Assembly (NCBI GenBank): GCA_043799545.1
Contig: JAZDNO010000023.1
Location: 9,360 to 73,359, forward strand
Origin: Methanobacteriota archaeon
Lineage (GTDB): Archaea; Thermoplasmatota; Thermoplasmata; SG8-5; DAIRED01
Length of the DNA stretch: 64,000 nucleotides
Direction: 5' to 3'
Under the pieces are notes generated by a model, which was given only the letters and a program-made list of their open reading frames with translations, did no database searches and was not told the DNA's origin. Position numbers and translations under genes: made by a program. How positions within the stretch are numbered: position 1 is the stretch's first letter; every line of letters begins with the position of its first letter. Shown here piece by piece: positions 10,610 to 45,364 of the stretch.

Positions 10610-11164
10610 GTGAGGCAATCTGTCCGTGCTCTCGTCGCGGTGGCGTTCGCCGCCACTTTACTATCCGCTTGCGTGAATGCCAGCGCCGCTTCCATTACCC
10701 CCACCGTGTCTCCGACGCGTGGGAGCATCAGCGCTGAGTACGCCTTCGTAGTCAGGTACTCGGGGCAGCTGGCCGTCTCCAGCGCCACGGTCTACATCAA
10801 CGGCGAGGCCCGCGCCATGGGTGAGGTAGACCCCGCGGACCAGAACGTCACGAACGGCAAGGACTACTCCCTTGTCACGAAGCTGCCCGAGGGCGCGAAC
10901 GTTTACTATTTCCTGGTCGTCGACGCCAACGGGACAGAGTACCGCAGCGCGGCCGGAACTGTGGTCGTGGACCCGCTCCTGGAATTCGGGCACTTCGACG
11001 TCGCGCTCGCGGTGCTGCTGTTCATGCTCCCTCTCGCATACGCCATGCTCCTGATGAGGCGGGCCACGAAGGCGCTGGAGAAGGTGGCGAAAAGGCTGGA
11101 ACCGAAGGATGAAAAACCCGAAGCTGGCATCAAGGAGCCAGAGGCTCCTCTGAATCGTGGCTGA
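10610..11164 (+). CDS. Secreted Ig-like domain protein with C-terminal TM anchor
   Basis: Signal peptide (RALVAVAFAATLLSACVNASA), beta-rich domain, hydrophobic helix followed by RR. Start GTG 10610 or TTG 10601. Confidence 0.75.
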   Translation: MRQSVRALVAVAFAATLLSACVNASAASITPTVSPTRGSISAEYAFVVRYSGQLAVSSATVYINGEARAMGEVDPADQNVTNGKDYSLVTKLPEGANVYYFLVVDANGTEYRSAAGTVVVDPLLEFGHFDVALAVLLFMLPLAYAMLLMRRATKALEKVAKRLEPKDEKPEAGIKEPEAPLNRG

Positions 11165-26844: not shown

Positions 26845-27106
26845 AAAACCTTTATACATTTCTTATTTCTTCTGGCATAGTGAAAACGATGCGCAAGCTT
26901 TTTTAAGGGATGAGCATAAAGTTAATATAGAGAAAGTGCAATTCTGAGTTAGACTAGTGGACATTAACATCCGGAACGGTCCGCCAGTGTGTCGTAGGTA
27001 GGGAGTGTCATGGAGTGTCGTGAGAAAGGGGCTGTGAGCCCCGCCTTAGCCAGCATGAGCCTTACAGTTGTTGTACCAGTGACCGTCATCGACGGAGGTG
27101 CGTTAC

Positions 27107-30100
27107 ATGTCTAAGCGCGAGAGCGGGATAGAGTGTCCGGTTTGCGGAGCATCCAATCCAACTGGCGATTCCGAGTGCAAGGAGTGCGGTTTCATATTCG
27201 AGGCTGACCGGGCTGTGGCGAAGCCTCCTGTGGCAGCAGCCGCTCCGAAAGGAGTAGTAGCTCCCTCCTCGACGCGCGAGTGCCCCAGCTGCATGGCCAT
27301 AATCGAGGCATCCGACGCGGAGTGCCCCATCTGCGGCGAGAAGTTAGTGCCAACCTTCGTCAAGGAGACTGGCCAGGAGATATCGTGTAAATCCTGCGGG
27401 GCATTGCTCGATTCGTCGTTGACGGTCTGCCCGATATGCGGGGAAGGCCTGGTAGAGGTCAGGGAGGAGCCGGCGCCGGAAGCCCAGGCCGACGAGTTCA
27501 CATGCAGCAACTGCGGGTCGATACTCTCGTTCGGTATGACCGAGTGCCCGGTCTGCGGCGTGAGGTTCGACCAGCCGTTGACCCCCCCAATGCCGGTCTC
27601 GGCGGTTCCAGCAGAACCTGTCGAGATACCCATGGAAACGCCCGAACCCGCTGTAGCCAAGGACGAATCATGGGACCTTGGGTCTGTGGGCGGCCAGGCT
27701 GTTGAACCTGCGGATGCCCCATACGAACCGGAACAGAGGGAGGAACCAGCCGCTCCGGGGATAGATGCAATTCCAGAGGAGCCGATGCAGGTCGCAGAAG
27801 AGCCGCCAATGCCAGTTCCATCAGCTCCGCCCGAGGCGGTGCCGGCGAAGGTCAAGCTGGCGGACGACGAGTTCGCATGCCCGTCATGCTCCGTTCCGGT
27901 CAAGCTTGGAACGGACCGCTGCGAATCGTGCTGGGCGGACGTGGCCGGATACGTCAGGTGCCCGTCATGCGGGACGGCGTCTGGACCCGGGGTGGAGGTC
28001 TGTCCGGACTGTTTCGCCAAGCTGCCATTGGCCGCGGCGCCGACGGCGATGGCGCCTGAACCGGAACTCGAGGTTCCCGAGGATAAAGAAGAGCCCTCGC
28101 CCAAGGAGGGCGACGCCGATTGCCCGTCGTGCGGAAGCCCGGTCCTCAAGGAAGACGTGATGTGCGCCGACTGCGGAATGATACTCATAAATGAGGAGGA
28201 GCCGCCGGTCAAGAAGCGCGAGCCGAGGAAGAAGCCCATCCAGCAGCTCGGAGTATGGGAGAAGCGCGCTGTGATAATCGTGATTGCGCTCCTCATGAGC
28301 TCCGCCCTGATGCCATTCATATTCAGCCTGCCGCAGGTCGAGCGCGACCGGATAATATTCGACGGGTCATTCGACGACTGGGGCCAAGTTAGGGTCAACC
28401 ACGACGACGTGGGAGCGCTGCCGAGCGAGGTGGACATTACTGCCTACCAGGTGATATCCGACGGCAGGAACATCTACTTCTCGGAGACCGTGCTGGGCAA
28501 TATCTTCAGCAGCGTCCGCGGGGAGACGATGAGGGTATTCGCCGATACAGACCGGAATCCGGCCACTGGCTATTCCATACGCGGCACGGGCGCCGACTAC
28601 ATGGTCCGGGTCTACGGATGGGGCGGCGTCGTCAGGAGCGCTTCCTGCCTCAGGTTCGCCACCGCCACAAACCAGAACGACTTCACAGCTTTCCAGAGCC
28701 ACGCCACGGCGTACCCGTACGCCTCGGGAAACCAAACGGAGGTCCGCGTGCTCCTTGCAGACATGGGGATGAACGAAGAGACACGGGCGAACATAGTTTT
28801 CTACATGGGCAACTCGCTCGGCCAGCATGACTTCTCCGACCTGGTCGTGTCGAACATCGGTGGGGTTCTCAACGTCAGGCAGGTCCCTTCCGCGAGCGTT
28901 CTCGCGGACGGCTGGATACCTGTCGGAACCTCGACTGAGGTGATGACCTTCGAGATGGCGGCTGCGGGCCAAGACATCTCATTAACGGGATTGGAGACGC
29001 ACGGGCTCGTCCAGAACCGGACCCTTCCGCTAATGATCGCCGATGGGAATACCGTGCTCGCCAGCGTCATAGCCAACCCGACCGCTGCCCAAGCAGGCGA
29101 TGTGGTCGAGGCCTTGTTCGCCGCAGCGGACTTCACGCTGCTGGATGGTTCCACGGCCGTCACGGGCGGAGCCGCCAGGGCGTATGCCGGCCAACCTGCA
29201 GCCGGGGTGACGATAGACGGCGCCTTCGCAGATTGGCGTAATGAAGCGATCTCCGACGACCCGACAACCGACGTCATGGACCGGAGCTCTACGAATTACA
29301 TCACTTCTGATAACATCAACATCCTGGGGTACGCCAGCGGGACCGCCGCCAGCGCCCAGGGGCAGAGCCTCAACGTTTACGTGAACGTTGCAGGCCATGC
29401 GCTTGGCGGAACCGACGTGCCGGTCGAGGAATCGGCTCACCTGGTGCCCCCGAGCAGCACTAGGTCCCAGGCTACACCGTCTGCAAGCCAGGCGCAATCG
29501 AACAATACCCGTTCGGAACAAGCGCAAACGCCAGCCGGAACAAGGCAGGCGGCCGCTGAGCGCCCGGAGCTGGCGCCGCCGGCGCCGAAGGCGAAGACGG
29601 GCGAGGACGCAATCCTCGTGCTGCTGGACACGGACAACCGTTCGGCGACTGGATACCTGGCCGGCGGGCTCGGCGCGGACATGCTCCTAGAGGTAAAGGG
29701 GCGCGAGGGAAAGGTGACTTCGACGATTCTGTACGGTTTCTCCGGCGCGGACCAGAGGATTTACTCCTGGAATGCGGTGGGAAACGGCACCGCCGCCTGC
29801 ACGGGCTCGGAGATTGAGGTGGGAGTACTGCTTTCCGATATCGGAATAGCTGCCTACGCTGAACTTGCAGTCCTGATTCATGTGGTCGACTGGAAGGAGG
29901 ACAAGGACGCTGCGAACGTGAGCTGGGACGCAGCTGGCAACGCGTTAGGGACCACTAGGGCACCCGCTCCGCCCAACCAGATATACGGTTGGGTAAAACA
30001 CGCGAACAACTCGATAGCCAACGGCACTACATTGGCGGTGATGATTGCGGTGAGCGGGATAGCGAGTAGCTACGTCGTGCGCACGAACAGTACGACTGGC

Positions 30101-33100
30101 GGTTTCTTCTTCAACTTCCCATCGAGCTACAACGGAAGGACCGCATCGTTCTATACGACGGACGGAACGGCAAACTGGGGACTCAGGAGAACCGTCCTTG
30201 CCGGGAATTTCGTAGGAATCATCACGAAAGACTTCAATATCACAATGAACAGATCTCTCGCGGCTTATGCCCCGAAGGACTTCATGGCATCGACCGGGGC
30301 CTCGTCAGACCCGGAGGTCAAACTTAGATGGACGGCCACGGGCTTACCGCCGTCTGGAAACTACAGGATTTTCAGGGGCACGACGCTTTTCTACGACCAG
30401 TCAGATGACGCATACGATTGCTTCCAATTCACGCCGCAGGCGACGACCTCCTCGTATGGCTGGCTCGACTCGAACGTGAGCATAGGCGGCGATTACTTCT
30501 ACTACGTCGCTGCGGTCAATGGAACATCGAACGAGATGAACTCGACGTTCCTCTGGAACCGCGTCCAAGCATTGCCCGAATCCCCGTACACGGTCTACGG
30601 CGTGGCAAAGAACCCGGATGGCACCAGAATACAGGGAGTCAACGTCGAGGTGCGCACGTGGAACGGCAGCGTCTGGCACATCTTCAATAAAATCACGGAT
30701 CCGACTGGTGGCTACCTCGTGACCCTCCAGCCCGACGAGTACCTCCTCGGTTCGGAGGCGCACGTGAACGGTACTCTCGGCGACGCGTCCGTCTACAACC
30801 TCACAGCCGTCCCGTACATCCCTGGCATCCAGGACGACAAGTCTCCGTGCAACCTCACCCTCGGCCCGCCGCCGATGGAATTTTCCAAGACGGTGGACGA
30901 GCAGTTCATCGTTGTGGGCGAGACGCTCCACTATACGATATGGTTCAACAACACCGGGACTGTCAACGCATCGCAGGTATGGATTAACGACACTCTGCCT
31001 CAGGGGGTCGTCTACGCCGCGGACACGGCGGCGACGTCCCCTACGGCTTTCCCCTACTTCGTCAGCAGGACCGGTCCGCAATGGGTCGGCAGCAACCAGG
31101 AGATATACTACGTCTTCGTGGATGTCACTCCCGGAAACCACTATTTTCAGATTGACGCGGTCGTGAACGTCACGGGGGTGTTGAACGGCACTATGCTGAC
31201 CAACTGGGCGTACATGAACTGGACGACCGACGGCACGCAGTACTGGACGCAGAACGGCACGATGTTCTATCCGGACGGCCTGAGCGACAGCGCCACAAGC
31301 ACCGCGCTCGTCACGAACGTCGTCATAACCAAGGATGTGGACCTGGCGGTTGCGAACGCGGGAGACTATCTGGTATACACGGTGACTTTCAGCAACGCCG
31401 GCGGCGTCGACGCCTCGTTCGTCTGGGTCAACGACACGTTACCGAACGTGCCTCCAGGCGCCGTGACGTATGTCAGCGATACTGCCCTGTCGCTCGGAGC
31501 ACTCTTCCTGAGCAGCACGACGTGGACCACCCCGCTGCAATACGTTTTCCAGAACGTTCCGCCGGGAGCGCACGCATTCACGATAACCGCCCGCATTGCC
31601 ACCAACGTCCCAGTGGGCACCGCGCTGCTGAACAACGCCAGCTGCACCTACGCGATGGCGACGACTTCCTTCTTCGGACCGTGGGACACGGCGCAAACCA
31701 CCGTGGTCGCCCCGAGCATTGCCGTCGGCAAGACGGTGGACCTGCCTCAGGCGCGCCCAGGCGACGCCCTGACGTACACCATCCGCTTCGACAACAACGG
31801 GAACGACGTGGCGGACCGCGTGTGGATAAACGATACCCTGGACACGGACACGTACTGGGAGACTGACACGTCGCAGTCGCTCTTCACCATGTTCGTGTCG
31901 AGGGCGATCAGCGCCGTCCCGGGCGCCACGCTGCGCTACGTATTCGGCAACGTGCCCGTCGGCGCGCATCAATTCACGATAACTGCGAGGATACGCGCGG
32001 ACGCTCTGACCAGGCCCGGGCCTGACGGATGGGCGGTCAACTCTGTCGAGCTGGACTTCGCCACGAACTACACATCGTACGCGCAGAGCTCCGCCAGCGC
32101 GCAAACGGAAATCATTGCCCCTGCCGTCGAGGTCGCCAAGGACGTGAGCGCCGCGACCGCATCGCCAGGCGACCCGCTCGTTTACACCATAGCGATATAC
32201 AACAACGGCACGGCTCCAGCATCCTACGTCTGGATAAACGATACCCTGCCAGCGGGAGTCACGTTCGTCAGGGACACGGCCGGTTTGGGCTCGACGGCGG
32301 CGCCGTTCTGGTCCGCGAGCAGCAACGCATCCAACCCGCTCCAGTACGTCTTCCGGGACGTACCGCCGGCCCCGGGCGTCTACTCGTTCCAGGTGTTCGT
32401 CACGATTTTGGGCACGGTGATGGACGGCACGTGCCTCACGAACTGGGTCTACTGCGACTATGCCCCGCAAGGCGTCCAGACATTCGACAACGCCACGACG
32501 GTCGTGCGCAGGCCGATTATTGACGTGGACAAGGCGGCGGACCCGGGCATAGTTTATCCGGGAAGCTTCCTGAACTACACGATATGGTTCAACAACACCG
32601 GAGGTGGGGGCGCGTCTTACACGTGGTTGAACGACACTCTACCGCTTAACGCACAGTACGTGAGCGATACGAACGCGTCAGTCATAGGCGTCGGTCCTCC
32701 GGCGACGACCTGGACCCATGTAGGCAACGTCATAAGGTGGGTCTTCAGGACCGTCCAGCCCGGCATCCACAGCTTCACAATCACCATGCGTGTTAGCAGC
32801 GCTGCAGCGGAGGGCGACTTCGTCGTCAACACGGTCTTGTGCGCTTACGAGCAGGCGAACGGGCTCAAGTTCGCGCCCTCGTCTGCGACCGCCATCGCGG
32901 CGGTGCTGGCCGGACCAATAATCGGGGTGACGAAGGCCGCAGACCACAACCCGGTGCTGCCCGGAGACGTTCTGACATACCAGATAACGTTCAACAACGG
33001 CGGCAACCAGGTCGCTTCCCGCGTATGGCTCAACGAGACGCTCCCCGCAGGAGTGGCGTACATCAGCGACACGAACGCATCTGTGACCTCGTCGGGCGTG

Positions 33101-36100
33101 GGCTTGGCGATATTCGTCTCCAGAATAGGCAATTCGATACGATGGGTATTCTACGACGTGGCGCCTGGCGCCCACTCGTTCCAGGTCAGCGCGAGGGTCA
33201 ACTTAGAGGTCGAATGGAGCGTGCTGAGCAACTACGTCAGGTGCGAGTACCTTTCGAGCACGGGTGTGTACGGCCCCGACACGTGGGACTGGGCGAACGT
33301 GACCGTTCTCAGGCCCAATATCACGGTTGTGAAGAACGTTGACAGGGCTTTCGCCTCGCCTGGCGACCTGCTGACATACACGGTCTCATTCGCCAACACC
33401 GGGAGCGTACCATCCATCGTTCGCATCGTCGACGACCTGCCTCTGGGAGTATCGTACTTTACGGACGATGCGGCGACGATATCCGGGGTCATCACCCTGG
33501 CTTCAAAGGGGACAAGCGGCCAGCGCCTCTGGTTCAACTTCACAAACGTCCAGCCGGGACCGCACTCCTTCAACGTCGTCGTGCAGATTAGGACGAACGT
33601 GACGGCGGGCACGATACTCGTCAACAACGCCCTGCTCAACTACACGGCAGAGAACGGCCACGAGTTCGCAGGCTCCAGGGACAACGCAACGACAATCGTT
33701 TCGGACATGGTCGTCGTCAAGTCGGCCTCGCGGCCCTCGGTCGGCCCGGGGGATTTCCTCAACTTCACGATATGGTTCAACAACACGGGGAACATGACGT
33801 GCTCGTATGTCTGGATTAACGATACCTTGCCGGCCTGGACCACGTACGTCACGGACACGGCCGCGTCGCTGGGATACACATTCACGCGGACAGTCGGCGT
33901 CGGTTTCGTGCGATATGCCTTCCGCAACATCTCGGCCAACAGCTTCAACTCGTTCACCATCGCCCTGCGCGTCAACGCCAGCGTCCCGCCGGGAACGTGG
34001 GTGAACAACACGGTCGTAATGAACTACACGGACGCCTTCGGCAACCTCTTGCCCGGTTCGCAGGACGTCGCACCGGTCAGGGTGGACGTGGCGGTGGTTG
34101 GGCTGGCCAAAACCGTGGACTTGCCCGTCGCGTACCCCGACGATTTGCTCACGTACACGATATGGTTCAACAACACCGGTACAATCGCGTCGCCGCACGT
34201 TTGGATAAACGACACGCTGCCGTCGTGGGTGACGCTCGCGGCGCCGTGGAGCCTCGGTGGAACCGGAGCAGTCGGCGGGGGCGGTCTGGTCAACTTCACT
34301 TTGAACGTCTACTACGCATGGCACTTCCTGAACGTGGGCGTGGGAACGCACTTCATCACGCTGATTGTTCGGATAAACCCCGCGGCACCGTCCGGAATGC
34401 TGGTCAACCTAGCCGAGTCCGATTATGACAACGGTTACGGAACCATGCTGCCGCGAAACGACACGGCCACCACTCTGGTAATAAGGCCATACATTTCGGT
34501 TAACAAGGCGGGACCCGGGCAGGCGCTCCCAGGCGACTGGATACGCTACTGGATAAACTTCACGGTAACTGGCGCAGGTATCGCGTCGATGGTCTGGATA
34601 AACGACACCCTTCCTGCGGAGCTTGGGTTCATAACGCACAACGCGGATGCTTCGTTGTCGACGTGGGCAATCTTCGCAGGCTTCTGGCAGAACGGACAGG
34701 ATATGCACTTCAACTTCACGAACGTACCGGCGGGTTCCTACTCGTTCTGGATGCAGGTTGCAGTGAGCACCTCCGCCGAGGGGGAGGTCACCAACACGGC
34801 GTACCTCGACTACTCGATAGCCAACGGATACGTTTGGCACGCCCAAGACGACGCGATGACCGACGTGGTCCGGCCGCACATCACGATATCGAAGACAGTC
34901 AACCTGGCCGAGGCTTACCCGAACGACATCTTGGTTTACACGATATACTACAACAACACTGGCGGAGCAGCCGCTGCCATGGTGATAGTCACGGACGTCC
35001 TTCCGAACTGGGTCTCCTACATCGACGACACGTCCGGCGTAACGCCTGTGTTCGACGGCCTCCAGACGTACGATTGGACATTCATGTCAGTCACGATGGG
35101 CCTGCACAGCTTCCAGGTCCGCGTGCGCGTGAACAGCACGACCCCGCACTGCCAGACTCTGGTCAACACGGCGTCGCTGACATACTCGACGATTAGCAAT
35201 GTCGGTACGCCGGCTGAGTTCGAGCCTTCCATCGACGCGGCATCCACGCACATCAACAGGCCGCTCATAACAGTTGACAAGATCGTCGACTATGCGGTCG
35301 CGGCTCCGGGAGCCTTCCTCAACTACACAATCGCTTTCGACAACAACAACCCGGAAGCGGCGTTCGCCGTCTGGATAAACGACACCCTGCCCGCGGGCGT
35401 GATATACGTCACCGACACATCGGCGGCAGTGGTCGGCGCGACCCTCGCCAGCAGCGGCCGGAGCGGCCAGTTCATGTGGTTCAACTTCACGAACGTGCTG
35501 CCTGGGGCGCACGCCTTCACCGTAACGGTCCGTATAAATCCGGTGGCCGTCCCTGGCACCACTTTGACCAACTGGGCGCACCTCGATTACGCCGCGGCGA
35601 ACGGCTTCATGCTCGAGCCTTCAGAGGACACGGCATCGACGCTCATCTCGGCGATGGGCATCACCAAGGACGTAGACCTCCCGCTCGCGGTCCAGGGAGA
35701 CACGCTGACCTACACCATAACATTCGAGAACACCGCCGCGTCGCCGGCGATGTTCGTGTGGATTAACGATACATTGCCAATGGGCGTTACCTATGTGAGT
35801 GACACTGCATTTTTCCTCGGTGTTTATGGAGGCGGACCAACCTTCTCAGGACAGGTCGTTAGGTTCTGGTTCCAGAACGTCCCGCAGGGCGTTTACACCT
35901 TTGATATCGTAGTGACAATCGACGCCTCGGTAGCGCCAGGCACCTGGCTCAACAACACCGCGCGACTCGACTGGGCGAACGAGCTAGGCGGCATCATGCC
36001 GTCGTCGCAGGACGGGGCGGAGACGAAGGTCGCCGAGGCCGTCGTGGACATAGCAAAGAGCGCCTCTGTGGGCCGGGTCTACCCGGGACAGCAGTTCACG

Positions 36101-39100: not shown

Positions 39101-42100
39101 ACCGCCGAGAACGTGGCGACGTGCGACGTCGCGACGCCTTGGGCGACGATAGACCATTCGGAGGCGAGCGCCAGCACCCAGATCGTCCGGCCATGGATAA
39201 CCGTCGGTAAGATTGGCCCGGCAATCGTGAGCCCGGGTGCGACCGTCCAGTTCACAATATTCTTCAACAACATCGGGCCATCGGCGGCGGCCTTCGTTTG
39301 GATAAACGAGACGTTCTTCGGCTCGATGCTTTGGGTCAGCGACAGCGCAGCGGCGGTCTCGGGTGCGACCTTCGGCGGGCGTATCGGGACACCAGGACCC
39401 GTCATCCAGTACCTATTCACGAACGTGCAGCCGGGGGCGCACAGCTTCGTCGTCAACGTGACGATAGACCCGACGGTGGCCGAGGGCGCATCCCTCTGGA
39501 ACAACGTCACGCTCGATTACACGACTTCGAGCTCGCAGGCGAACGTCGACCTTGAGCGGTCATGGCGCAACGTGAGCTTGACAGCCACTGGCGTGAGCAT
39601 CACGGTCCAGAAGCTCGTCAGCGCAGGGACGGCCACGCCTGGCGATTTCCTCAACTACACGGTATTCTTCAACAACCTCGGCTCTGAGAACGCTGCCTTT
39701 GTCTGGCTCAACGACACGCTCCCCGCGGGCGTTGTTTACGTCGGCAACACATCCGCTGGCGTCTGGGGCGCAACGCTGGTCAGTTCCGGCCGGAGCGGCC
39801 AGAACATGTGGTTCAACTTCACGAACGTCCAGCCGGGCGCGCACTGGTTCACGATTACTGTGCGCGTATCGACCTCCGGACTTGCAGACGGTCAGCCGCT
39901 CAGGAACCGGGCATACCTTAACTACACCAACGCGAACGGCAACATGGAAGCCCCGTCGTCCGCGAGCGCCTTGACGGTGGTTTCGATGCCGAACATCACC
40001 GTCGCCAAGTCCGTGAACGCCACCCTCGCTTATGCGGGAACCTCGCTCACGTATACGATATGGTTCAACAACACGGGCAACGGCACGGCGGCCTTCGTAT
40101 GGCTGAACGACACCCTCCCGGCGGGAGTCACGTACATTGGAAACACCTCCGCGACCGTGGCGGGAGCGACGCTGGTCAGCTCCGGTCGGAGCGGACAATC
40201 CATGTGGTTCAACTTCACGGACGTGCTGACGGGCGCGCACTCGTTCACGATAACCGTGGCGATAAACGGCGCAGCTGCGAACAACACGCTCCTCGCCAAC
40301 CGCGCCTCGCTCAACTACACGGACCTCAACAGGAACATCTACCCGTGGTCCCAGGACTGGGCGAACACTACGGTGCTCAACCTTCCGTACATCGTTGTCG
40401 AGAAGGCGGTCAACCAGACATCCTGCTCGTCCGGGGACGCGCTGCAGTACACGATATGGTTCAACAACACCGGCCCGGCGACGTCGGCGCTCGTCGAAAT
40501 AAGCGACGTGCTGCCCGTGGGAGCGACCTACGTGAGCAACTCATCCATGAGCGTTGCGGGCGCCACCTACGCCAGCTCGGGCGCCAGCGGCCAGTACCTC
40601 TGGTTCAATTTCACGAACGTCCTGACCGGAGTCCACAGCTTCGTGATAAACGTGACCGGCGCGGGCGGCGCGGGAACGTTCCTGACGAACTGGGCCTTCC
40701 TGAACTACACGGATCCGACAGGAACGATACAGCTTCCGTGGTCGCAGGACTCGGCGACGACCGTCGTGACGAACGTTGCCATCATAGTCGTCAAGACGGC
40801 TTCCGTTCCGACGGCCGATCCGAGCGACCCGGTACAGTACACGATAACGTTCGACAACGACGGCACGGCGGCCGCAGGCACGGTCTCCATCGCCGACGTG
40901 CTCCCCATCGGCGTCACCTACGTCAGCAACTCGTCCGCTTCCGTGGTGGGCGCCGTACTCGCGAGCAGCGGCATGAGCGGCCAATACCTGTGGTTCAACT
41001 TCACGAACGTCCAGCCCGGGGCGCACAGCTTCCTTGTCAACGTCACGGTGAACGCCGGTGTCGCGGACCGCACGCCGTTGCGCAACTGGGTGTTCCTCAA
41101 CTACACGGACATGGCCGCCAATCCGCTCCTGCGGAGCCAGTCGAGCGCGCTCACGACGGTCACGGCACCAGTCGTCCTGGTTTCCAAGGTTCCGGACATG
41201 CAGTACGCCGACCCGGGCGACATTGTGACTTACACGATCACATTCGTGAACACCGGTTCGGGCGTCGCGGCCAGCGTGTGGATTGTCGACACTCTTCAGG
41301 CGGGACTAGCATATGTGAGCAACACTTCCGCGAGCGTCGCTGGCGCAATTCTGGTCAGTTCCGGCCGGAGCGGCCAATACCTGTGGTTCAACTTCACGAA
41401 CGTCCAGCAGGGCGCGCACTCATTCGTCCTGCGGGCCCGCGTCCAGGTGGGCCTCGCCGACGGCATTATTCTTAGGAACACGGCCGGCCTAAACTGCACG
41501 GACGCGAACGGCAACCTGCTCCCGCAGAGCGTTGACGTAGCCGACGTCACGGTCACAGCGCCCTCGATGTCCATGGCCAAGACCGCGGCTCCGACCAACG
41601 TCTATCCCGGCGAGTACGTCAATTTCACCATAATCTTCCAGAACTCCGGGGCCGGCGCGGCCTCGTTCGTGTGGTTGAACGACACTCTGCCCGGTTACTG
41701 CCAGTACATCACGCATTCCGCTTCGTCCATACCGTACTATTTGATAAGCACATACGGCGGCGGCATCCTGCGCATCGTGTTCAGGAACCTGCCAACGGGG
41801 CTATACTCGTTCACGATTACCGTGAAAATACTGACCAACGCTCCCGACGGGGTCCGGCTGGATAACGCGGCGAGGCTGGACAGCACGGACGCCAACGGCA
41901 ACAAGTTGGCGCAACGGACCGACAATGCCAGCGTGTGGGTCAGGGCTCCGAGCATCGCTGTCCAGAAGACCGTGTCCGACGCCTCGGTCTACCCGAACCA
42001 AACGGTTGCATACGAGATATACTTCGACAACATGGGTTCCGGGAACGCCTCGAAGGTGTGGATAAACGACACCATGCCCCTAGGAGTTACTCTGCTCTGG

Positions 42101-45100
42101 CACACGGCTCAGAACTCTACGACGACAGCGGCATACTACGCATCCGGCATCATCGCCCTGCAGAAAATGTATCTCGTTTTCAACAACGTCACACCAGGTT
42201 CTCACAGCTTTACGATCTTCGTCAGGATAAACACGAACCTCGCGAACGGCGCGGTCCTCCGCAACACCGCTTGGTGCAACTACACGGCCGTGACGAAATA
42301 CCAGGAGACCAAGGCCTGGGCGGACGTTACGGTTTCGAGGCCGACGGTCGATGTGGCGAAGTCTGTCAGCCAGGCCGTGTCGTCCCCCGGAGATGTTTTG
42401 ACATACTACATATGGCTTAACGGCACGGGCGCGGTCGCACCGGACCTGTGGTTCAACGACACGCTGCCGAACGGCGTCACCTACCTGTGGGATAGCGCGG
42501 CCGGAGTAGCTGGATTCGTCTCCCGCACAATCGCCGGCCAGAACCTCATTATCCACTTCCAGGGTTTCACATCCGGCGTGCATTTCTTCACGATAACCGT
42601 CAGGGTCAGCAACGACACCGTGACGCTGCTGTTCGACGGATGGCCGCTCCTCAACTCCGCGAGGATTGAGTACCGCGTCCCGACGTACGGTTGGAACGCC
42701 ACCGCAAGCGTCCAGTCATTCGTGCGCTTCCCGACGATAACCGTCGAAAAGTACGTCGACAAGTCCGTGGCCTATCCGACGGAGGTGCTCAAGTACACAA
42801 TCCGTGTGCGCAACACAGGTTCGGTCGCCTCGCCGATTGTATGGGTCCGCGACACGATGCCAACGAACGCGATATACCTCACCAGCACCGTGGGCACGCC
42901 GTCTGTCGTGGCGGGAGTGTACACGTGGACGTTCTACAACATGGCTGCGAAGGGCACCATCGAGTTCAACGTCTGGGTCAGGGTTTCGGCGAGCGCTCCG
43001 AACAACGACACAGTGGACAACCTGGTCAGGTGCGATTACACTTTCACCAACGGTTTGATTCGCACCACGACCGATGCATCCACCTCGACGCGCGTAATCA
43101 GGCCAGTAATCACGGTTGAGAAGATTGCCCTCCAGCCCACAGCATACCCGGGCGAGGTTGTGACGTTCGTCATATACTTCAACAACACGATGGGCAGCGG
43201 CACGGCTTACAGGGTGTGGATAAACGACACCCTCCCCGTTGGATTGACCTACGAACCGGGCGGAACGACGCCTGGACTCGTCGCAGGACAGAGCCTGGGA
43301 TGGCTCTTCAGGAACGTCGGGTCGTATACTAGGAACCAGCTCACGGTGATGGCGCGCGTTGGCATGGATGTCCCGGCCCGCACGGTACTAACGGACACGG
43401 CTTTCCTGAACTACACGGGGCCGTCTCAGTCCGGATACCTTAAGTTCGAGGAGACGCGCGACACCGCGTCGATTACGGTCATCTCTCCGCACATCGTCGT
43501 GGAGAAGACCGTGAACGCAGCCACGGCGAACCCTGGCGACATGTTGACGTACGCGCTCTACTTCAACAACACCGGGAACGGTGCCGCCGTGAACACTGTG
43601 ATTGAGGACACCTTGCCTGAGTGGGTGGCATACGTCTCGGACGATTCCGGATTGTCGCATGGCACCTTCGGGCGCACCTTGACGTGGGACATCGGTGCTC
43701 TGCCGGTCGGGCCGCACGTCTTCAACGTGACAGTAAGGATAACCAGCGACTTCGCAATACCGGACCGCACGCTGCTTGTGAACGAGGTTGCATGCTCGTA
43801 CGCGACACCCACGGGCCAATCGTGGACCACCGCAGACTCTGCGGAAACCATGGTAATCAAACCGATAGTCTCGCTCACGAAAACCGCCGCCACAGGCGTA
43901 GCCGGGCCCGGGGACGTTGTCAGGTTCACGATAACTCTCAGCAACACCGGCTCCGACTTGGCCAGACTCCTGTGGCTGAACGACACGCTGCCGGCGCACT
44001 TGATATACGCCGGCGACAGCTCCGCATCAGTCACGGGAATGGAGCGTGTCTCCATGGTAGCGGGGGCGGGCCAGATACGATGGACGTTCGCCAACGTCAC
44101 CCCCGGGACGCACTCTTTCGAGGTCAACTTCACAGTGAACGTCTCGATGCTCGATGATTCCGTCTCCCTCAACGCGGTGACCTCGGCGTACATAGCGCCG
44201 AACGGCGTCGCGTACCCGAACCTCAGCGCGAGCGCGTACGTTCACCTCAGAAGGCCGTTCATCACGGTGCAAAAAACAGTGGACAACGCGACGGTCGCTC
44301 CGGGTGGTGTGCTGAATTACACCATCTGGTTCAACAACACGGGAAGCGGGGTTGCTGGGACGGTCTGGCTGAACGACACGCTGCCTGCCATGACCTCATA
44401 CGTCTCAGACACATCCGGCGCTGCGGTCCAATCCGCAGGGCAGGTGTTGAGGTGGATATTGCTCGGCGTCGTCCCGGGTCCGCACTCCTTTAGCGTCATC
44501 GTGAACGTTTCCAGCACTGCGTACGGCACTCTGGTCAACAACGTCACGTGCGGTTACGCGGCTGTGAGCGGGTTCTTCCTGGGCTCATCTTCAGACGAGG
44601 CCGTAACCGTAGTTGGGGGTGCAATGCCGACGCCGCCAGAGATAACGACAGTGCCTATCACGCCCGTCTGGGCTGGATTCGACGTGCATTTCGCGGCTGA
44701 CGTCACGGATGACGAGGGCGTCGACACCGTGATGATATACTACGTGGACATCGAGGGCGTTTGGGGCTCCGGAGAGATGGTGCAGAGCGCGGGCAACTTC
44801 ACAACCGGCATCGGCGCGTATGAATACCAGATTGACCCGCAGACCTGGAAAGGCATAGTCAGCTACTTCGTCTGGGCCAACGACACCCGTGGGTTGTGGA
44901 GCATGACCGGGTGGAACGATGTCGTTGTAATCCTGCCCCCCTACATCGTGTGGGGCAACGTCGTCAGCAACGCCGGCTCGCCCGTCGCCAACGCCATGGT
45001 GCTTGTGATAAACAACGCGACCAACGACACTGCGCTGACGGTGGCGAACAACGACGGCGTCTACGAGGTCGACCTGGCGGATATGGATTCCGGGTACCAG

Positions 45101-45364
45101 ATCGGCCAGGACCTGACGCTCTTCGGAACGGACCTGCTCTACTACGGCTTCGCATACACCGGGGTAGACGTCTCGGGCTACTCTCTCTCTCCGGAGATGC
45201 CCCCGTCGGCGGACAACCCGAACAGCTTCCCGTACGACCAGGTTGACATCATCCTCAACGAGATTCCCGAGTATGGCACCGTGGCATTCCCGCTGCTAAT
45301 CGTTTTGGCGCTGTTCGCCATAACGCGCCGGAGGGGAAAGCGCGGGGCGCCCAAGCGGGTGTAA
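27107..45364 (+). CDS. Giant (~6,085 aa) surface glycoprotein: 7 zinc ribbons, TM helix, 35 DUF11/isopeptide-type repeats, PEF-CTERM-like signal
   Basis: Uninterrupted ORF; GGAGGTG SD at 27094-27100 supports ATG 27107. 14 CxxC motifs, TM at ~28270-28330, repeats K-x..YTIxFxNxG..NDTLP..N, end IPEY-TM-RRRGKR. Confidence 0.92.
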   Translation: MSKRESGIECPVCGASNPTGDSECKECGFIFEADRAVAKPPVAAAAPKGVVAPSSTRECPSCMAIIEASDAECPICGEKLVPTFVKETGQEISCKSCGALLDSSLTVCPICGEGLVEVREEPAPEAQADEFTCSNCGSILSFGMTECPVCGVRFDQPLTPPMPVSAVPAEPVEIPMETPEPAVAKDESWDLGSVGGQAVEPADAPYEPEQREEPAAPGIDAIPEEPMQVAEEPPMPVPSAPPEAVPAKVKLADDEFACPSCSVPVKLGTDRCESCWADVAGYVRCPSCGTASGPGVEVCPDCFAKLPLAAAPTAMAPEPELEVPEDKEEPSPKEGDADCPSCGSPVLKEDVMCADCGMILINEEEPPVKKREPRKKPIQQLGVWEKRAVIIVIALLMSSALMPFIFSLPQVERDRIIFDGSFDDWGQVRVNHDDVGALPSEVDITAYQVISDGRNIYFSETVLGNIFSSVRGETMRVFADTDRNPATGYSIRGTGADYMVRVYGWGGVVRSASCLRFATATNQNDFTAFQSHATAYPYASGNQTEVRVLLADMGMNEETRANIVFYMGNSLGQHDFSDLVVSNIGGVLNVRQVPSASVLADGWIPVGTSTEVMTFEMAAAGQDISLTGLETHGLVQNRTLPLMIADGNTVLASVIANPTAAQAGDVVEALFAAADFTLLDGSTAVTGGAARAYAGQPAAGVTIDGAFADWRNEAISDDPTTDVMDRSSTNYITSDNINILGYASGTAASAQGQSLNVYVNVAGHALGGTDVPVEESAHLVPPSSTRSQATPSASQAQSNNTRSEQAQTPAGTRQAAAERPELAPPAPKAKTGEDAILVLLDTDNRSATGYLAGGLGADMLLEVKGREGKVTSTILYGFSGADQRIYSWNAVGNGTAACTGSEIEVGVLLSDIGIAAYAELAVLIHVVDWKEDKDAANVSWDAAGNALGTTRAPAPPNQIYGWVKHANNSIANGTTLAVMIAVSGIASSYVVRTNSTTGGFFFNFPSSYNGRTASFYTTDGTANWGLRRTVLAGNFVGIITKDFNITMNRSLAAYAPKDFMASTGASSDPEVKLRWTATGLPPSGNYRIFRGTTLFYDQSDDAYDCFQFTPQATTSSYGWLDSNVSIGGDYFYYVAAVNGTSNEMNSTFLWNRVQALPESPYTVYGVAKNPDGTRIQGVNVEVRTWNGSVWHIFNKITDPTGGYLVTLQPDEYLLGSEAHVNGTLGDASVYNLTAVPYIPGIQDDKSPCNLTLGPPPMEFSKTVDEQFIVVGETLHYTIWFNNTGTVNASQVWINDTLPQGVVYAADTAATSPTAFPYFVSRTGPQWVGSNQEIYYVFVDVTPGNHYFQIDAVVNVTGVLNGTMLTNWAYMNWTTDGTQYWTQNGTMFYPDGLSDSATSTALVTNVVITKDVDLAVANAGDYLVYTVTFSNAGGVDASFVWVNDTLPNVPPGAVTYVSDTALSLGALFLSSTTWTTPLQYVFQNVPPGAHAFTITARIATNVPVGTALLNNASCTYAMATTSFFGPWDTAQTTVVAPSIAVGKTVDLPQARPGDALTYTIRFDNNGNDVADRVWINDTLDTDTYWETDTSQSLFTMFVSRAISAVPGATLRYVFGNVPVGAHQFTITARIRADALTRPGPDGWAVNSVELDFATNYTSYAQSSASAQTEIIAPAVEVAKDVSAATASPGDPLVYTIAIYNNGTAPASYVWINDTLPAGVTFVRDTAGLGSTAAPFWSASSNASNPLQYVFRDVPPAPGVYSFQVFVTILGTVMDGTCLTNWVYCDYAPQGVQTFDNATTVVRRPIIDVDKAADPGIVYPGSFLNYTIWFNNTGGGGASYTWLNDTLPLNAQYVSDTNASVIGVGPPATTWTHVGNVIRWVFRTVQPGIHSFTITMRVSSAAAEGDFVVNTVLCAYEQANGLKFAPSSATAIAAVLAGPIIGVTKAADHNPVLPGDVLTYQITFNNGGNQVASRVWLNETLPAGVAYISDTNASVTSSGVGLAIFVSRIGNSIRWVFYDVAPGAHSFQVSARVNLEVEWSVLSNYVRCEYLSSTGVYGPDTWDWANVTVLRPNITVVKNVDRAFASPGDLLTYTVSFANTGSVPSIVRIVDDLPLGVSYFTDDAATISGVITLASKGTSGQRLWFNFTNVQPGPHSFNVVVQIRTNVTAGTILVNNALLNYTAENGHEFAGSRDNATTIVSDMVVVKSASRPSVGPGDFLNFTIWFNNTGNMTCSYVWINDTLPAWTTYVTDTAASLGYTFTRTVGVGFVRYAFRNISANSFNSFTIALRVNASVPPGTWVNNTVVMNYTDAFGNLLPGSQDVAPVRVDVAVVGLAKTVDLPVAYPDDLLTYTIWFNNTGTIASPHVWINDTLPSWVTLAAPWSLGGTGAVGGGGLVNFTLNVYYAWHFLNVGVGTHFITLIVRINPAAPSGMLVNLAESDYDNGYGTMLPRNDTATTLVIRPYISVNKAGPGQALPGDWIRYWINFTVTGAGIASMVWINDTLPAELGFITHNADASLSTWAIFAGFWQNGQDMHFNFTNVPAGSYSFWMQVAVSTSAEGEVTNTAYLDYSIANGYVWHAQDDAMTDVVRPHITISKTVNLAEAYPNDILVYTIYYNNTGGAAAAMVIVTDVLPNWVSYIDDTSGVTPVFDGLQTYDWTFMSVTMGLHSFQVRVRVNSTTPHCQTLVNTASLTYSTISNVGTPAEFEPSIDAASTHINRPLITVDKIVDYAVAAPGAFLNYTIAFDNNNPEAAFAVWINDTLPAGVIYVTDTSAAVVGATLASSGRSGQFMWFNFTNVLPGAHAFTVTVRINPVAVPGTTLTNWAHLDYAAANGFMLEPSEDTASTLISAMGITKDVDLPLAVQGDTLTYTITFENTAASPAMFVWINDTLPMGVTYVSDTAFFLGVYGGGPTFSGQVVRFWFQNVPQGVYTFDIVVTIDASVAPGTWLNNTARLDWANELGGIMPSSQDGAETKVAEAVVDIAKSASVGRVYPGQQFTYTIWFNNSGETDATWVSIVDFLPSGVVYQSNTAGAVAGATFLGPMAQSGRYLYFNFTGVLPGAHSFTINLSVSVPLDNVLLVNQASLNYSAGSYQYQDWPVDWANVTLVMPIMTVDKTPEIQPASWGDLVTFTITFSNTGHGTASWVWINDTLPSGLFYVSDTSDTSPTVTPYFQSKGNSGQSLWFNFTDVPSGVYSFTLTVRVGTGIADGTALTNTVDIRYNTPDWNAYPVDSDEAWVIVQVPSIAVQKDVNRNVASPGSFLTYTISFNNVGSWPAARVWINDTLPAGVQYWSDNANLVAGATFLAPTGVSGRRLYFNFTNVVTGLHSFQVVAYVLPTVTNGTTLTNWAFLNYTLASGYRMPPSQDDASTLVTIMAVAKVVGAPVVRALQTVTYTIHFNNTAAFPITYAWLNDTLPAGTTYANDTAWTVANANFVGKWISGQQLKFNFTAVQPGYHSFVITATVAPSVIPGQQLSNLVNLNHTDNAGFEMTGSSSWANCTVARPTLTIAKAAVTPDVYPGSVARFAITVTNIGTDAAGWIWVNDTLQAGLTFVAHNAWALAAFSANESLTANFVSIRFYGLGVGASLTFWLDARVAITQGDDTYRMNTARCAFTSVGGYRLPEEPVDSALIHITRPAVSVQKAVDRSGVYHGQTLTYTIWFNNSGHAPAGDIWINDTLPNNVLYQGDTSGLGVGQHQSIGLWHSWHFTNVAVGARSFTITVLVLQSAPINSWLYNEATWNYTSPNGINPGTATATSNQVSTLVLGPIVSLSKIVDAATAQPGQPLTYTIYFNNTGNSNARVWLNDTLPLDVTYAGHTAATTATHTLLSWGRSGQNLWFNFTNVQPGNHWFTVTVRVNNNAQNGTWANNTATCDFVAANGYHYDRLQDGAITLIFRPMVVVQKTADIGQATIGDTIVYTIWFNNTDDVDASYVWLNDTLPPGVTYVSDTSATSPTASPYFWANDTTGNPLLFEFRDLPPGDYSFTITVAVDYFAAPPADFTAENVATCDVATPWATIDHSEASASTQIVRPWITVGKIGPAIVSPGATVQFTIFFNNIGPSAAAFVWINETFFGSMLWVSDSAAAVSGATFGGRIGTPGPVIQYLFTNVQPGAHSFVVNVTIDPTVAEGASLWNNVTLDYTTSSSQANVDLERSWRNVSLTATGVSITVQKLVSAGTATPGDFLNYTVFFNNLGSENAAFVWLNDTLPAGVVYVGNTSAGVWGATLVSSGRSGQNMWFNFTNVQPGAHWFTITVRVSTSGLADGQPLRNRAYLNYTNANGNMEAPSSASALTVVSMPNITVAKSVNATLAYAGTSLTYTIWFNNTGNGTAAFVWLNDTLPAGVTYIGNTSATVAGATLVSSGRSGQSMWFNFTDVLTGAHSFTITVAINGAAANNTLLANRASLNYTDLNRNIYPWSQDWANTTVLNLPYIVVEKAVNQTSCSSGDALQYTIWFNNTGPATSALVEISDVLPVGATYVSNSSMSVAGATYASSGASGQYLWFNFTNVLTGVHSFVINVTGAGGAGTFLTNWAFLNYTDPTGTIQLPWSQDSATTVVTNVAIIVVKTASVPTADPSDPVQYTITFDNDGTAAAGTVSIADVLPIGVTYVSNSSASVVGAVLASSGMSGQYLWFNFTNVQPGAHSFLVNVTVNAGVADRTPLRNWVFLNYTDMAANPLLRSQSSALTTVTAPVVLVSKVPDMQYADPGDIVTYTITFVNTGSGVAASVWIVDTLQAGLAYVSNTSASVAGAILVSSGRSGQYLWFNFTNVQQGAHSFVLRARVQVGLADGIILRNTAGLNCTDANGNLLPQSVDVADVTVTAPSMSMAKTAAPTNVYPGEYVNFTIIFQNSGAGAASFVWLNDTLPGYCQYITHSASSIPYYLISTYGGGILRIVFRNLPTGLYSFTITVKILTNAPDGVRLDNAARLDSTDANGNKLAQRTDNASVWVRAPSIAVQKTVSDASVYPNQTVAYEIYFDNMGSGNASKVWINDTMPLGVTLLWHTAQNSTTTAAYYASGIIALQKMYLVFNNVTPGSHSFTIFVRINTNLANGAVLRNTAWCNYTAVTKYQETKAWADVTVSRPTVDVAKSVSQAVSSPGDVLTYYIWLNGTGAVAPDLWFNDTLPNGVTYLWDSAAGVAGFVSRTIAGQNLIIHFQGFTSGVHFFTITVRVSNDTVTLLFDGWPLLNSARIEYRVPTYGWNATASVQSFVRFPTITVEKYVDKSVAYPTEVLKYTIRVRNTGSVASPIVWVRDTMPTNAIYLTSTVGTPSVVAGVYTWTFYNMAAKGTIEFNVWVRVSASAPNNDTVDNLVRCDYTFTNGLIRTTTDASTSTRVIRPVITVEKIALQPTAYPGEVVTFVIYFNNTMGSGTAYRVWINDTLPVGLTYEPGGTTPGLVAGQSLGWLFRNVGSYTRNQLTVMARVGMDVPARTVLTDTAFLNYTGPSQSGYLKFEETRDTASITVISPHIVVEKTVNAATANPGDMLTYALYFNNTGNGAAVNTVIEDTLPEWVAYVSDDSGLSHGTFGRTLTWDIGALPVGPHVFNVTVRITSDFAIPDRTLLVNEVACSYATPTGQSWTTADSAETMVIKPIVSLTKTAATGVAGPGDVVRFTITLSNTGSDLARLLWLNDTLPAHLIYAGDSSASVTGMERVSMVAGAGQIRWTFANVTPGTHSFEVNFTVNVSMLDDSVSLNAVTSAYIAPNGVAYPNLSASAYVHLRRPFITVQKTVDNATVAPGGVLNYTIWFNNTGSGVAGTVWLNDTLPAMTSYVSDTSGAAVQSAGQVLRWILLGVVPGPHSFSVIVNVSSTAYGTLVNNVTCGYAAVSGFFLGSSSDEAVTVVGGAMPTPPEITTVPITPVWAGFDVHFAADVTDDEGVDTVMIYYVDIEGVWGSGEMVQSAGNFTTGIGAYEYQIDPQTWKGIVSYFVWANDTRGLWSMTGWNDVVVILPPYIVWGNVVSNAGSPVANAMVLVINNATNDTALTVANNDGVYEVDLADMDSGYQIGQDLTLFGTDLLYYGFAYTGVDVSGYSLSPEMPPSADNPNSFPYDQVDIILNEIPEYGTVAFPLLIVLALFAITRRRGKRGAPKRV
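30875..44610 (+). repeat. Array of 35 tandem ~130-aa DUF11 (TIGR01451/RrgB-D2-like) repeats
   Basis: Counted by hand from the recurring xxK[TDS]V...[YF]TIxFxNxG and W[IL]NDTLP motifs. Confidence 0.88.

Follow-up and report, generated by a model that had tools for sequence, protein, structure and literature searches.

Exosortase and archaeosortase systems are generally viewed as acting on proteins with a signal peptide at the N-terminus and a sorting tail at the C-terminus, the product being a protein held by one anchor. To our knowledge, ArtA/PGF-CTERM is the sole archaeosortase system with experimental support: in Haloferax volcanii, ArtA reportedly cleaves the PGF-CTERM tail, and the S-layer glycoprotein receives a lipid. 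We know of no experiment that shows ArtC acting on PEF-CTERM.

The giant protein described here resembles the ArtA/PGF-CTERM system as to enzyme superfamily, tail logic and the glycoprotein nature of the substrates; motif and enzyme subfamily are different. Moreover, ArtA substrates bear Sec or Tat signal peptides and finish with a single anchor, while the helix of the giant would stay in the membrane, providing a second anchor and a cytoplasmic domain. In the PEF-CTERM/archaeosortase C system (TIGR03024/TIGR03762; Haft, Payne and Selengut 2012, as cited in PMC5244752 and PMC9723798), the likeness extends to the tripartite C-terminus, consisting of PE[FY], a hydrophobic helix and an Arg/Lys cluster, and to the presence of several tailed proteins per genome together with a dedicated archaeosortase-family enzyme that has conserved Cys, Arg and His residues. 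In contrast to that system, the giant has Tyr in place of Phe, and both its tail and the enzyme score below the curated cut-offs. A signal peptide is lacking; the chain instead starts with a 389-aa, most likely cytoplasmic head, which an internal signal anchor links to a conserved pedestal, a term defined here for a ~540-aa domain without a Pfam or NCBIfam model.

Integrity of the reading frame

In the window, that is, the whole stretch of 64,000 nucleotides analysed, the giant is encoded on the forward strand by a single uninterrupted open reading frame that starts at 27098 (GTG) or 27107 (ATG), ends at 45364 and specifies 6,088 or 6,085 aa, in agreement with the 6,085-aa protein reported in the first-pass annotation. 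The 6,085-aa form has an identical counterpart in a database entry. Residue numbers refer to the 6,088-aa form from GTG 27098, and the features are collected in Table 1. Proteins of more than 5,000 residues are rare in archaea (PMC11573180), and the giant is one of the few documented archaeal proteins above this length.

Given that the source genome is a metagenome-type assembly of 31 contigs and that the array is repetitive, a misassembly might have fused a zinc-ribbon gene to a secreted repeat gene, or the array length might be wrong. However, the array repeats are mutually only 60–79% identical at the DNA level, which makes repeat collapse or misjoining unlikely, and the 35 array units are in phase, with no break of the frame. 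The junction between head, helix and pedestal is kept in nine orthologues from other assemblies, four of which are full-length (5,189–6,763 aa) and show the identical head-to-tail order, and one orthologue was retrieved identically from NCBI, Logan and ENA. An assembly artefact is, on this evidence, extremely improbable.

Table 1. Features of the giant protein and of its putative processing enzyme, with positions in the window.
Feature	Residues	Position	Strand	Evidence
ArtC-like archaeosortase, 369 aa, with C-terminal cytoplasmic zinc-ribbon extension; putative processing enzyme		11130..12239	-	profiles
Complete ORF of the giant protein		27098..45364	+	ORF reading, identical 6,085-aa database entry
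Head, most likely cytoplasmic, with seven Cys4 zinc ribbons and Pro/Glu-rich linkers	1-389	27098..28264	+	Pfam, motifs
Predicted N-in/C-out signal-anchor helix	391-411	28268..28330	+	hydropathy, AF2, flanking charges
Juxtamembrane pedestal: CBM9/DOMON-like, Ig-like, CBM9/glucodextranase-C-like	416-955	28343..29962	+	alignments, AF2, VIA
GTTRAP, candidate processing/recognition site	951-956	29948..29965	+	G-[TS]-R motif conservation
Spacer with one weak transthyretin-like (CarboxypepD_reg) match	961-1248	29978..30841	+	Pfam E 0.014
35 contiguous DUF11/TIGR01451 repeats, ~131 aa each	1249-5833	30842..44596	+	Pfam, NCBIfam, self-built HMM
C-terminal non-repeat region, CarboxypepD_reg-like domain	5834-6053	44597..45256	+	Pfam E 1.9e-05
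PEF-CTERM-like sorting tail		45257..45361	+	TIGR03024, motif
IPEY	6056-6059	45263-45274	+	tail motif
C-terminal hydrophobic helix	6060-6076	45275-45325	+	hydropathy
Basic cluster RRRGKRGAPKRV	6077-6088	45326-45361	+	sequence

Zinc-ribbon head and membrane helix

The head contains 14 CxxC motifs, arranged as seven CxxC-x10-CxxC ribbons (residues 13–30, 62–79, 97–114, 136–153, 261–278, 288–305 and 342–359) that span positions 27134–28174. It is matched by the zinc-ribbon profiles Zn_ribbon_3 (PF13248; E 4.9e-25, 86.6 bits) and DZR (PF12773; E 1.7e-19, 70.1 bits), both far above the cut-off of ~27 bits, and zinc binding is predicted. The composition is marked by 54 Pro and 69 Asp+Glu residues, and a conserved WDxGxxGG motif is found at 27668–27694. 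In ribbons 3–7, all 20 Cys residues are invariant across nine orthologues with 30–49% identity; judging from these invariant ligands of five ribbons, the head is under selection. The absence of a signal peptide, the seven ribbons with their Pro/Glu-rich linkers and the one transmembrane segment, all proposed in the first-pass annotation, are borne out by motifs, Pfam and hydropathy, the last of which detects no hydrophobic segment at the N-terminus of the protein.

Helix 391–411 reaches a hydropathy peak of 2.6 and is helical in the AF2 model. Eight Lys/Arg residues lie in the 20 positions that precede it and two in the 20 that follow, and residues L399, S402, P406, F407, L411 and P412 of this region are invariant among the orthologues. 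Topology was judged from hydropathy and composition. N-glycosylation sequons number 0 in the head versus 163 outside it, the Asn content is 0.8% versus 7.1%, and the heads of paralogues bear HhH (HHH_5) and TPR domains according to Pfam. The positive-inside flanks, the lack of sequons and low Asn content, and the HhH and TPR domains of paralogous heads together make a cytoplasmic location of the zinc-ribbon head most likely, as had been suggested when the locus was first read. An internal start before the helix, which would convert it into a classic signal peptide, was considered and rejected: the head is in frame and conserved, with invariant Cys ligands, and for this reason a headless form would be a minor product at most.

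Pedestal

Beyond the helix lie about 5,640 aa of extracellular-type domains. The first part is the pedestal, a Ca-site-rich region in which two CBM9/DOMON-like sandwiches flank an Ig-like domain; both CBM9-like domains carry IDGxFxDW and DxDxNxxTGY...GADY motifs. The AF2 model of the pedestal has a pLDDT of 85.3. Fold comparison of its domains by VIA returned 1i82 (Z 11.2), 2ivf_C (Z 11.1), 7uwu (Z 11.8) and 1ulv (Z 10.5), values that exceed the Ig-like background of Z 7–8, while no sequence profile was matched, the Pfam and NCBIfam models included. The three-domain model submitted to Foldseek gave only meaningless multi-Ig matches (TM ~0.12), and in the ESM Atlas feature search all leads stayed below 0.9, with Glucodextran_C at 0.79.

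The sandwiches probably have a fold in common with CBM9/DOMON modules and with the C-terminal domain of the Arthrobacter glucodextranase, over 145–172 aligned residues, and they also carry the DGxxxDW start motif. In contrast, identity to the CBM9/DOMON structures (1i82, 2ivf_C, 1ulv and 7uwu) is only 7–12%, with no Pfam CBM9 match, and, unlike such modules elsewhere, the pair is arranged as an invariable tandem immediately behind a membrane helix. The idea that ArtC joins the tail to a Lys of the pedestal, in the manner of pilus polymerisation, was rejected, the pedestal alignments being devoid of an invariant Lys.

DUF11 shaft and sorting tail

The spacer that precedes the shaft contains 12 sequons and, apart from the match given in Table 1, has no family match. 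The DUF11 array itself carries 141 N-glycosylation sequons, and its scores reach 326 bits for PF01345 and 404 bits for TIGR01451 (per 1,600-aa slice), above the cut-offs. In the units delimited by the self-built HMM, the residues of the isopeptide triad are present as Lys in 35/35, Asp in 33/35 and Asn in 34/35, and TIGR04226, with a cut-off of 30 bits, is matched at 74.4 and 81.8 bits. The Lys/Asp/Asn triad typical of self-forming isopeptide bonds is retained along the shaft, and the bonds themselves are predicted. The same triad occurs in the isopeptide-stabilised pilins and adhesins of Gram-positive bacteria (TIGR04226, RrgB D2 type). Whereas these are polymers of subunits, the giant is one chain of 6,088 aa; it differs further in having isopeptide bonds that are predicted only, in its archaeal host, and in an anchor that is an archaeosortase tail, not LPXTG.

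The C-terminal tail of the giant scores 18.5, 19.9 and 20.8 bits on TIGR03024, under the cut-off of 23, and is the best match to this model in the genome. In the orthologues the corresponding tail has IPEF, and the cut-off is passed by two such tails (P0004, 26.6 bits; P0008, 24.8 bits). The earlier assignment as a PEF-CTERM variant therefore holds, through the tripartite motif and the orthologous IPEF tails, although the TIGR03024 scan is positive for two orthologues and negative for the giant itself. That PEF-CTERM proteins usually possess a signal peptide, another statement made at that stage, agrees with the canonical-ArtC genome, where eight of the nine tailed ORFs found by our own motif screen begin with an N-terminal hydrophobic segment.

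ArtC-like archaeosortase

The archaeosortase gene lies 14.9 kb upstream of the giant, consistent with the distance of about 15 kb given in the first-pass annotation; its product is ArtC-like, with conserved catalytic residues. On TIGR03762 the enzyme scores 59.8 bits, under the cut-off of 100, with ArtC still the best-scoring subfamily. Membership of the superfamily is clear from TIGR04178 (50.5 bits, cut-off 23) and PF09721 (Exosortase_EpsH; 45.3 bits, cut-off 25.7), and Cys217, Arg263 and His283 are invariant in comparison with canonical ArtC and ArtA. The TIGR03762 cut-off is passed in only 1 of 151 Thermoplasmatota genomes. In the canonical-ArtC genome (361 bits), the pedestal protein has a canonical PEF-CTERM of 40.9 bits.

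Unlike canonical ArtC, the local enzyme has an extra zinc ribbon at its C-terminus. Complex prediction for this ribbon and the head of the giant gave a score of 0.00 (mark 0.34), which speaks neither for nor against binding. A related-locus search with the enzyme as query returned one locus only, in a Thermoplasmatota MAG, at 77% identity. The linkage between enzyme and giant is weak, because they are 15 kb apart with unrelated genes between them; at the genome level, the enzyme coexists with seven PE[FY] tails and is one of only two archaeosortases, the other being ArtA (120.7 bits). With this finding ArtC, an enzyme that has hardly been studied, gains a defined and testable class of candidate substrates.

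Family and co-occurrence

The giant is not a singular oddity: a genome-wide count gave seven PE[FY]-CTERM proteins in the source genome, all seven with head, helix and pedestal, and conversely all seven pedestal genes end in PE[FY]-CTERM; the same build is common to most of the ~990 relatives found at E<=1e-3. Among 149 relatives sampled, 120 have a helix just before the pedestal; 95 of these 120 have a head of more than 100 aa, and one or more zinc ribbons are present in 63. Within a widespread family, the giant is the largest local member and has a typical build. It is among the longest members, with a head made purely of seven zinc ribbons and a passenger made solely of DUF11 units. No curated model or paper was found for the family of pedestal proteins.

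The survey of 151 Thermoplasmatota genomes revealed an ArtC-like match in 24 of the 26 pedestal-positive genomes versus 16 of the 125 others, counts that overstate independence because the sampled genomes are related. The exceptions include these 16 genomes with an ArtC-like enzyme and no pedestal, as well as one 97%-complete pedestal-positive genome in which an ArtC-like match was not found at E<=1e-6. At least 14 Thermoplasmatota families are represented. The protein family comprises hundreds of genes in which a head, an internal anchor and a sugar-binding-like pedestal are added to a PEF-type tail.

Modes of anchoring

The giant is probably a heavily N-glycosylated surface fibre or adhesin of an uncultured Thermoplasmatota archaeon, with a cytoplasmic head anchored by the helix and a tail processed by the ArtC-like enzyme. 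Helix 391–411 would drive export and remain in the membrane, so that the head would stay cytoplasmic. The ArtC-like archaeosortase would recognise the IPEY tail, cleave it and substitute a covalent, probably lipid, anchor, by analogy with ArtA/PGF-CTERM. The mature fibre would then have two points of attachment, one at each end, or a single one if the G-T-R linker were cut, and the head may serve as a conserved docking module for cytoplasmic partners. For the family, a link between surface and cytoplasm is suggested by KaiC-like ATPase and winged-helix genes directly upstream of three of the seven paralogues; the giant has no such gene next to it. Should both anchors persist, no earlier sorting-tail substrates would be known to reach across the membrane into the cytoplasm, and in uncultured archaea giant surface fibres might be connected to the cell interior, physically or by signalling.

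A different fate of the linker has to be weighed. A G-[TS]-R motif occurs 10–40 aa past the pedestal in 67 of 126 relatives, compared with 3.6% of control windows, and in the giant it appears as GTTRAP, the site suggested in the first-pass annotation, within a low-pLDDT, otherwise variable linker. The motif belongs to the pedestal boundary, since the domains downstream differ between relatives. These features are consistent with a maturation in which the chain is cut at GTTRAP, leaving head, helix and pedestal behind as a membrane stub, and the shaft is held by the ArtC-made C-terminal anchor alone or non-covalently on the pedestal. Such a single-anchor fibre is rather unlikely, however, as 47% of the relatives are without the motif, and a short conserved motif may just as well serve to cap the structure or as a binding site.

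The doubts about the tail lead in another direction. Both tail and enzyme are under their curated cut-offs, no demonstration of ArtC activity is known, and ~60 other large proteins of the source genome end in a motif-less helix with a basic tail, so the giant might be a plain membrane protein with two helices, whose PEY tail is never cleaved while the ArtC-like enzyme acts on different substrates or plays another part. Against this, [IV]PE[FY]-x4-5-P followed by helix and basic cluster is present in all seven paralogues, and a PEF-like tail of this kind in 105 of the 149 relatives; such conservation far exceeds the needs of a bare anchor and, with the tight co-occurrence of pedestal and ArtC-like genes, makes an uncleaved tail improbable. 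Processing of the PE[FY] tails by ArtA rather than by the ArtC-like enzyme is more improbable still. The source genome does have ArtA, and the PGF-CTERM model detects no substrate for it there (best E 0.75), yet ArtA is found in 117 of the 151 genomes irrespective of the pedestal, and two complete single-contig genomes with pedestal and PEF proteins and an ArtC or ArtC-like enzyme gave no ArtA match.

An extension of the doubly anchored fibre is conceivable, albeit speculative and on balance doubtful: an integrin-like system anchored at two points, in which tether tension or ligand state would be relayed through the sequence-conserved helix to the zinc-ribbon, HhH or TPR head of the family members and on to KaiC-like ATPases and winged-helix regulators. 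Here ArtC would turn the C-terminal helix into a covalent anchor, the N-terminal helix would persist, and the 35-domain fibre, locked by isopeptide bonds, would form a loop or tether. If true, this would give a new signalling role to a sorting system so far seen as an anchoring device.

Architecture and Topology of the Giant Protein

Judged from its sequence, the giant surface protein is a variant of the archaeosortase substrate class, with putative processing, putative double tethering and a putative function of its head. One open frame encodes it, starting at GTG 27098 (6,088 aa) or ATG 27107 (6,085 aa) and ending with the stop codon at 45364; a database entry of 6,085 aa is identical to it. 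The anatomy given in the first-pass annotation (ORF, ribbons, helix, array and IPEY tail) is borne out as written. The coordinates of the individual features are collected in the table.

Features of the giant protein, its neighbors and KaiC-like loci
Feature	Position	Strand	Description
Candidate motif GTTRAP	residues 951-956	+	local copy of the [TS]-R motif, in a low-confidence linker (AlphaFold2)
Spacer after pedestal		+	~290 aa; one weak transthyretin-like match
DUF11/TIGR01451 array	residues 1249-5833	+	35 contiguous units, ~131 aa each
Non-repeat C-terminal region		+	220 aa, before the tail
Tail	C-terminal end	+	IPEY, 17-residue hydrophobic stretch, RRRGKRGAPKRV
Gene 1 after giant	window 45369-46175	+	starts 4 nt after stop
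Gene 2 after giant	window 46182-48818	+	starts ~820 nt after stop
ORF with Pfam KaiC domain	window 2634-5282	-	one of four in the window
ORF with Pfam KaiC domain	window 5302-6039	-	
ORF with Pfam KaiC domain	window 57454-58422	+	
ORF with Pfam KaiC domain	window 59004-59744	+	
KaiC-like/winged-helix locus	C2:28134-29390		by pedestal/PEF gene, outside window
KaiC-like/winged-helix locus	C2:38051-39641		by pedestal/PEF gene, outside window
KaiC-like/winged-helix locus	C5:18651-20259		by pedestal/PEF gene, outside window

The head (residues 1-389) contains 28 Cys, every one within 14 CxxC motifs, which pair as seven CxxC-x10-CxxC zinc ribbons with predicted metal binding and with Pro/Glu-rich linkers; the Pfam matches are Zn_ribbon_3 (E 4.9e-25) and DZR (E 1.7e-19). 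No hydrophobic segment is present at the N-terminus, and the sole strong helix of the N-terminal part spans residues 391-411. Eight Lys/Arg are found in the 20 residues before this helix, and 2 Lys/Arg with 5 Asp/Glu in the 20 residues after it. According to the positive-inside rule, the basic flank of a membrane helix lies on the inner side, and the Lys/Arg excess therefore points to an N-in orientation. The head has 0 N-x-S/T sequons (Asn 0.8%), and 163 occur in the 5,638 residues after the helix (Asn 7.1%). Furthermore, the HHH_5 and TPR domains in paralogue heads are cytoplasmic-type modules. An N-in helix, together with a C-terminal basic cluster located inside, would be consistent with one continuous ectodomain.

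Nine orthologues from other assemblies align over the head, the helix and into the pedestal, the conserved region directly after the helix, with 30-49% identity. In all nine, 20/20 Cys of ribbons 3-7, the WDxGxxGG motif between ribbons 4 and 5 and six residues inside the membrane helix are invariant, while the linkers are freely variable. The head is under selection, and ribbons 1-2 are a lineage-specific addition. Sequence conservation of the helix suggests a specific contact within the membrane.

In the shaft (the DUF11 array), the first-strand Lys is retained in 35/35 units, the WxNDTLP Asp in 33/35 and, close to the end, an Asn in 34/35, and the NCBIfam isopeptide-domain model TIGR04226 is matched above its cut-off. 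Gram-positive pilins form self-generated Lys-Asn cross-links; the retention of these residues fits such predicted cross-links, and the giant would work like the isopeptide-locked fibrillar adhesins.

Two other readings of the ORF are to be weighed. That it is an artefact is extremely improbable: its repeat copies share only 60-79% identity with one another at the DNA level, which makes them too diverged for collapse during assembly, and the head-helix-pedestal order is kept in the nine orthologues. Four of these are full-length (5,189-6,763 aa), with homologous IPEF tails, and one was retrieved identically from NCBI, Logan and ENA. The alternative of a matured filament, cut after the pedestal, draws on a G/S/T/A/Q-[TS]-R motif located 10-40 residues past the last conserved DW of the pedestal in 67 of 126 relatives, against only 3.6% of control windows of the same proteins. 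This motif may be a candidate cleavage or recognition site, and the filament reading as such is considered unlikely.

Pedestal and Protein Family

The ~540-aa pedestal (residues 416-955) has no match in Pfam or NCBIfam. An exhaustive profile-free search with giant residues 1-1200 as query gives 990 relatives at E<=1e-3, of which 495 reach E<=1e-10; in nearly every case, the alignment begins at the helix and runs onward. In a 22-sequence alignment (A1), one unit is present in two copies, starting with IDGxFxDW, followed by FIDxDxNxxTGY and GADY motifs and with numerous invariant Asp. The AlphaFold2 model from this alignment has a pLDDT of 85.3 and a pTM of 0.81. In a VIA search for similar structures, the best matches of domain 1 are CBM9 (1i82, Z 11.2, 145 residues aligned) and, from ethylbenzene dehydrogenase, the DOMON-like gamma subunit (2ivf_C, Z 11.1); those of the middle domain are Ig/PapD-like folds, and those of domain 2 are Sas6 (7uwu, Z 11.8) and the glucodextranase C-terminal domain (1ulv, Z 10.5). 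On the basis of these structural matches, the pedestal is predicted to be a sugar-binding-type tandem directly on the membrane.

Run genome-wide, as the first-pass annotation had proposed for PE[FY]-CTERM proteins, a motif and hydropathy screen of all ORFs of the 2.06-Mb genome, together with the pedestal search made after it, yields seven proteins in which [IVT]PE[FY]-x4-5-P is combined with a helix and a basic tail (3 PEY, 4 PEF). The pedestal matches of the genome are exactly these seven. Their helix lies 134-868 residues from the N-terminus, and their heads contain zinc ribbons, HHH_5, TPR or Asn-Gly repeats. In two paralogues (C5:9303-18587 and C29:4046-7150), long G-R/F-T-N-G-L-type Asn-Gly repeats directly precede the helix; such repeats also begin some database relatives and are absent from the giant. 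In a further paralogue (C9:18693-22572), a frameshift near C9:21145-21302 separates the frame of the pedestal from that of the repeat region and PEF tail; either the gene is a pseudogene or the shift is a sequencing error.

Among 149 representative relatives, a helix immediately before the pedestal is found in 120 and a PEF-like tail at the end in 105, many of those lacking the tail being fragments. A head of >100 aa is present in 95 of the 120 helix-bearing relatives (median 241), and at least one zinc ribbon in 63. Public databases name these proteins no more specifically than "zinc ribbon domain-containing", "DUF11 domain-containing" or "TIGR01451 family". As far as these sequences indicate, the combination of head, helix, pedestal and PEF tail is a family trait and the giant an ordinary member; a literature search turned up three papers in which PEF-CTERM is mentioned, and this architecture is described in none of them.

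Sorting Tail and Proposed Archaeosortase Partner

The earlier reading of the PEY tail as a PEF-CTERM variant holds insofar as it is the genome's best match to TIGR03024, and falls short in its sub-threshold score (18.5-20.8 bits, cut-off 23). With 26.6 and 24.8 bits, two orthologue tails pass this cut-off. Two archaeosortases are encoded in the genome, ArtA (120.7 bits) and the ArtC-like enzyme of the window (11130-12239, minus strand). The latter scores 50.5 bits against the family signature, above cut-off, and 59.8 bits against its best subfamily, ArtC (TIGR03762, cut-off 100); its Cys217, Arg263 and His283 align with canonical ArtC and ArtA. Judged by sequence, the giant would work like ArtC/PEF-CTERM substrates. 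By the curated thresholds, neither the giant (TIGR03024) nor its enzyme (TIGR03762) counts as a formal family member.

Across 151 Thermoplasmatota genomes (ArtC-like hit at E<=1e-6), an ArtC-like enzyme is found in 24 of the 26 genomes with a pedestal (2 without) and in 16 of the 125 in which none was found (109 without), counts that are descriptive only, since the sampled genomes are related and not independent. Of the two exceptions, one comes from a spurious match of 35 bits, and the genomes with both belong to at least 14 families. ArtA, present in 117/151 genomes, might instead be the partner of the pedestal proteins; that it was not found in two complete pedestal-positive genomes counts against this. 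Returning to the ArtC-like candidate partner, only one genome has a canonical ArtC (361 bits). Its pedestal protein combines a 200-aa head, in which TPR is matched, with a canonical PEF-CTERM (40.9 bits), and a motif screen finds eight other tailed ORFs with ordinary N-terminal hydrophobic segments, so that classic and head-bearing substrates coexist. The initial premise that PEF-CTERM substrates normally carry a signal peptide is consequently retained for the classic class.

Past its last helix, the window's enzyme ends in a Cys-rich extension of zinc-ribbon or PHD-like type (C-terminal 55 aa, 11130-11290). Cytoplasmic zinc-ribbon (CxxC) tails are found on the ArtC-like enzymes of 5/13 sampled pedestal-positive genomes, this one included, and in 0/3 sampled enzymes of pedestal-negative genomes; canonical ArtC also lacks one. 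ArtA (C1:119549-120466) is above cut-off, and a TIGR04126 search of the genome detects no PGF-CTERM protein (best E 0.75). About 60 large proteins of the genome have a C-terminal helix and basic tail without the motif.

Genomic Context

The window's enzyme lies within a glycan-biosynthesis cluster (7420-13295), next to an NAD-dependent sugar epimerase/dehydratase, a Wzx-like flippase and a GT4 glycosyltransferase; the epimerase-archaeosortase adjacency is kept in the nearest related MAG contig. Each of the two genes after the giant codes for a protein that begins with a signal-peptide-like segment, contains an Fn3 or CarboxypepD_reg domain and ends in a helix and basic tail lacking the PE[FY] motif; the two may be co-transcribed accessory surface proteins.

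At 3/7 paralogues, the gene is directly preceded by genes for a KaiC-like ATPase and a winged-helix-like protein in the same orientation, with a gap of just 1 nt to the start codon in one case. By a rough estimate, this is far above chance, given ~30 KaiC-like genes in 2.06 Mb. No such pair lies directly upstream of the giant. A fifth, weak KaiC match in the window (~58557-58940) comes from the genome search. Covering 3% of the genome, the window accounts for about one sixth of all KaiC-like matches in it. At 57-60 kb, the two KaiC ORFs are followed by two genes for archaeal type IV pilins (59876-60388 and 60541-61005).
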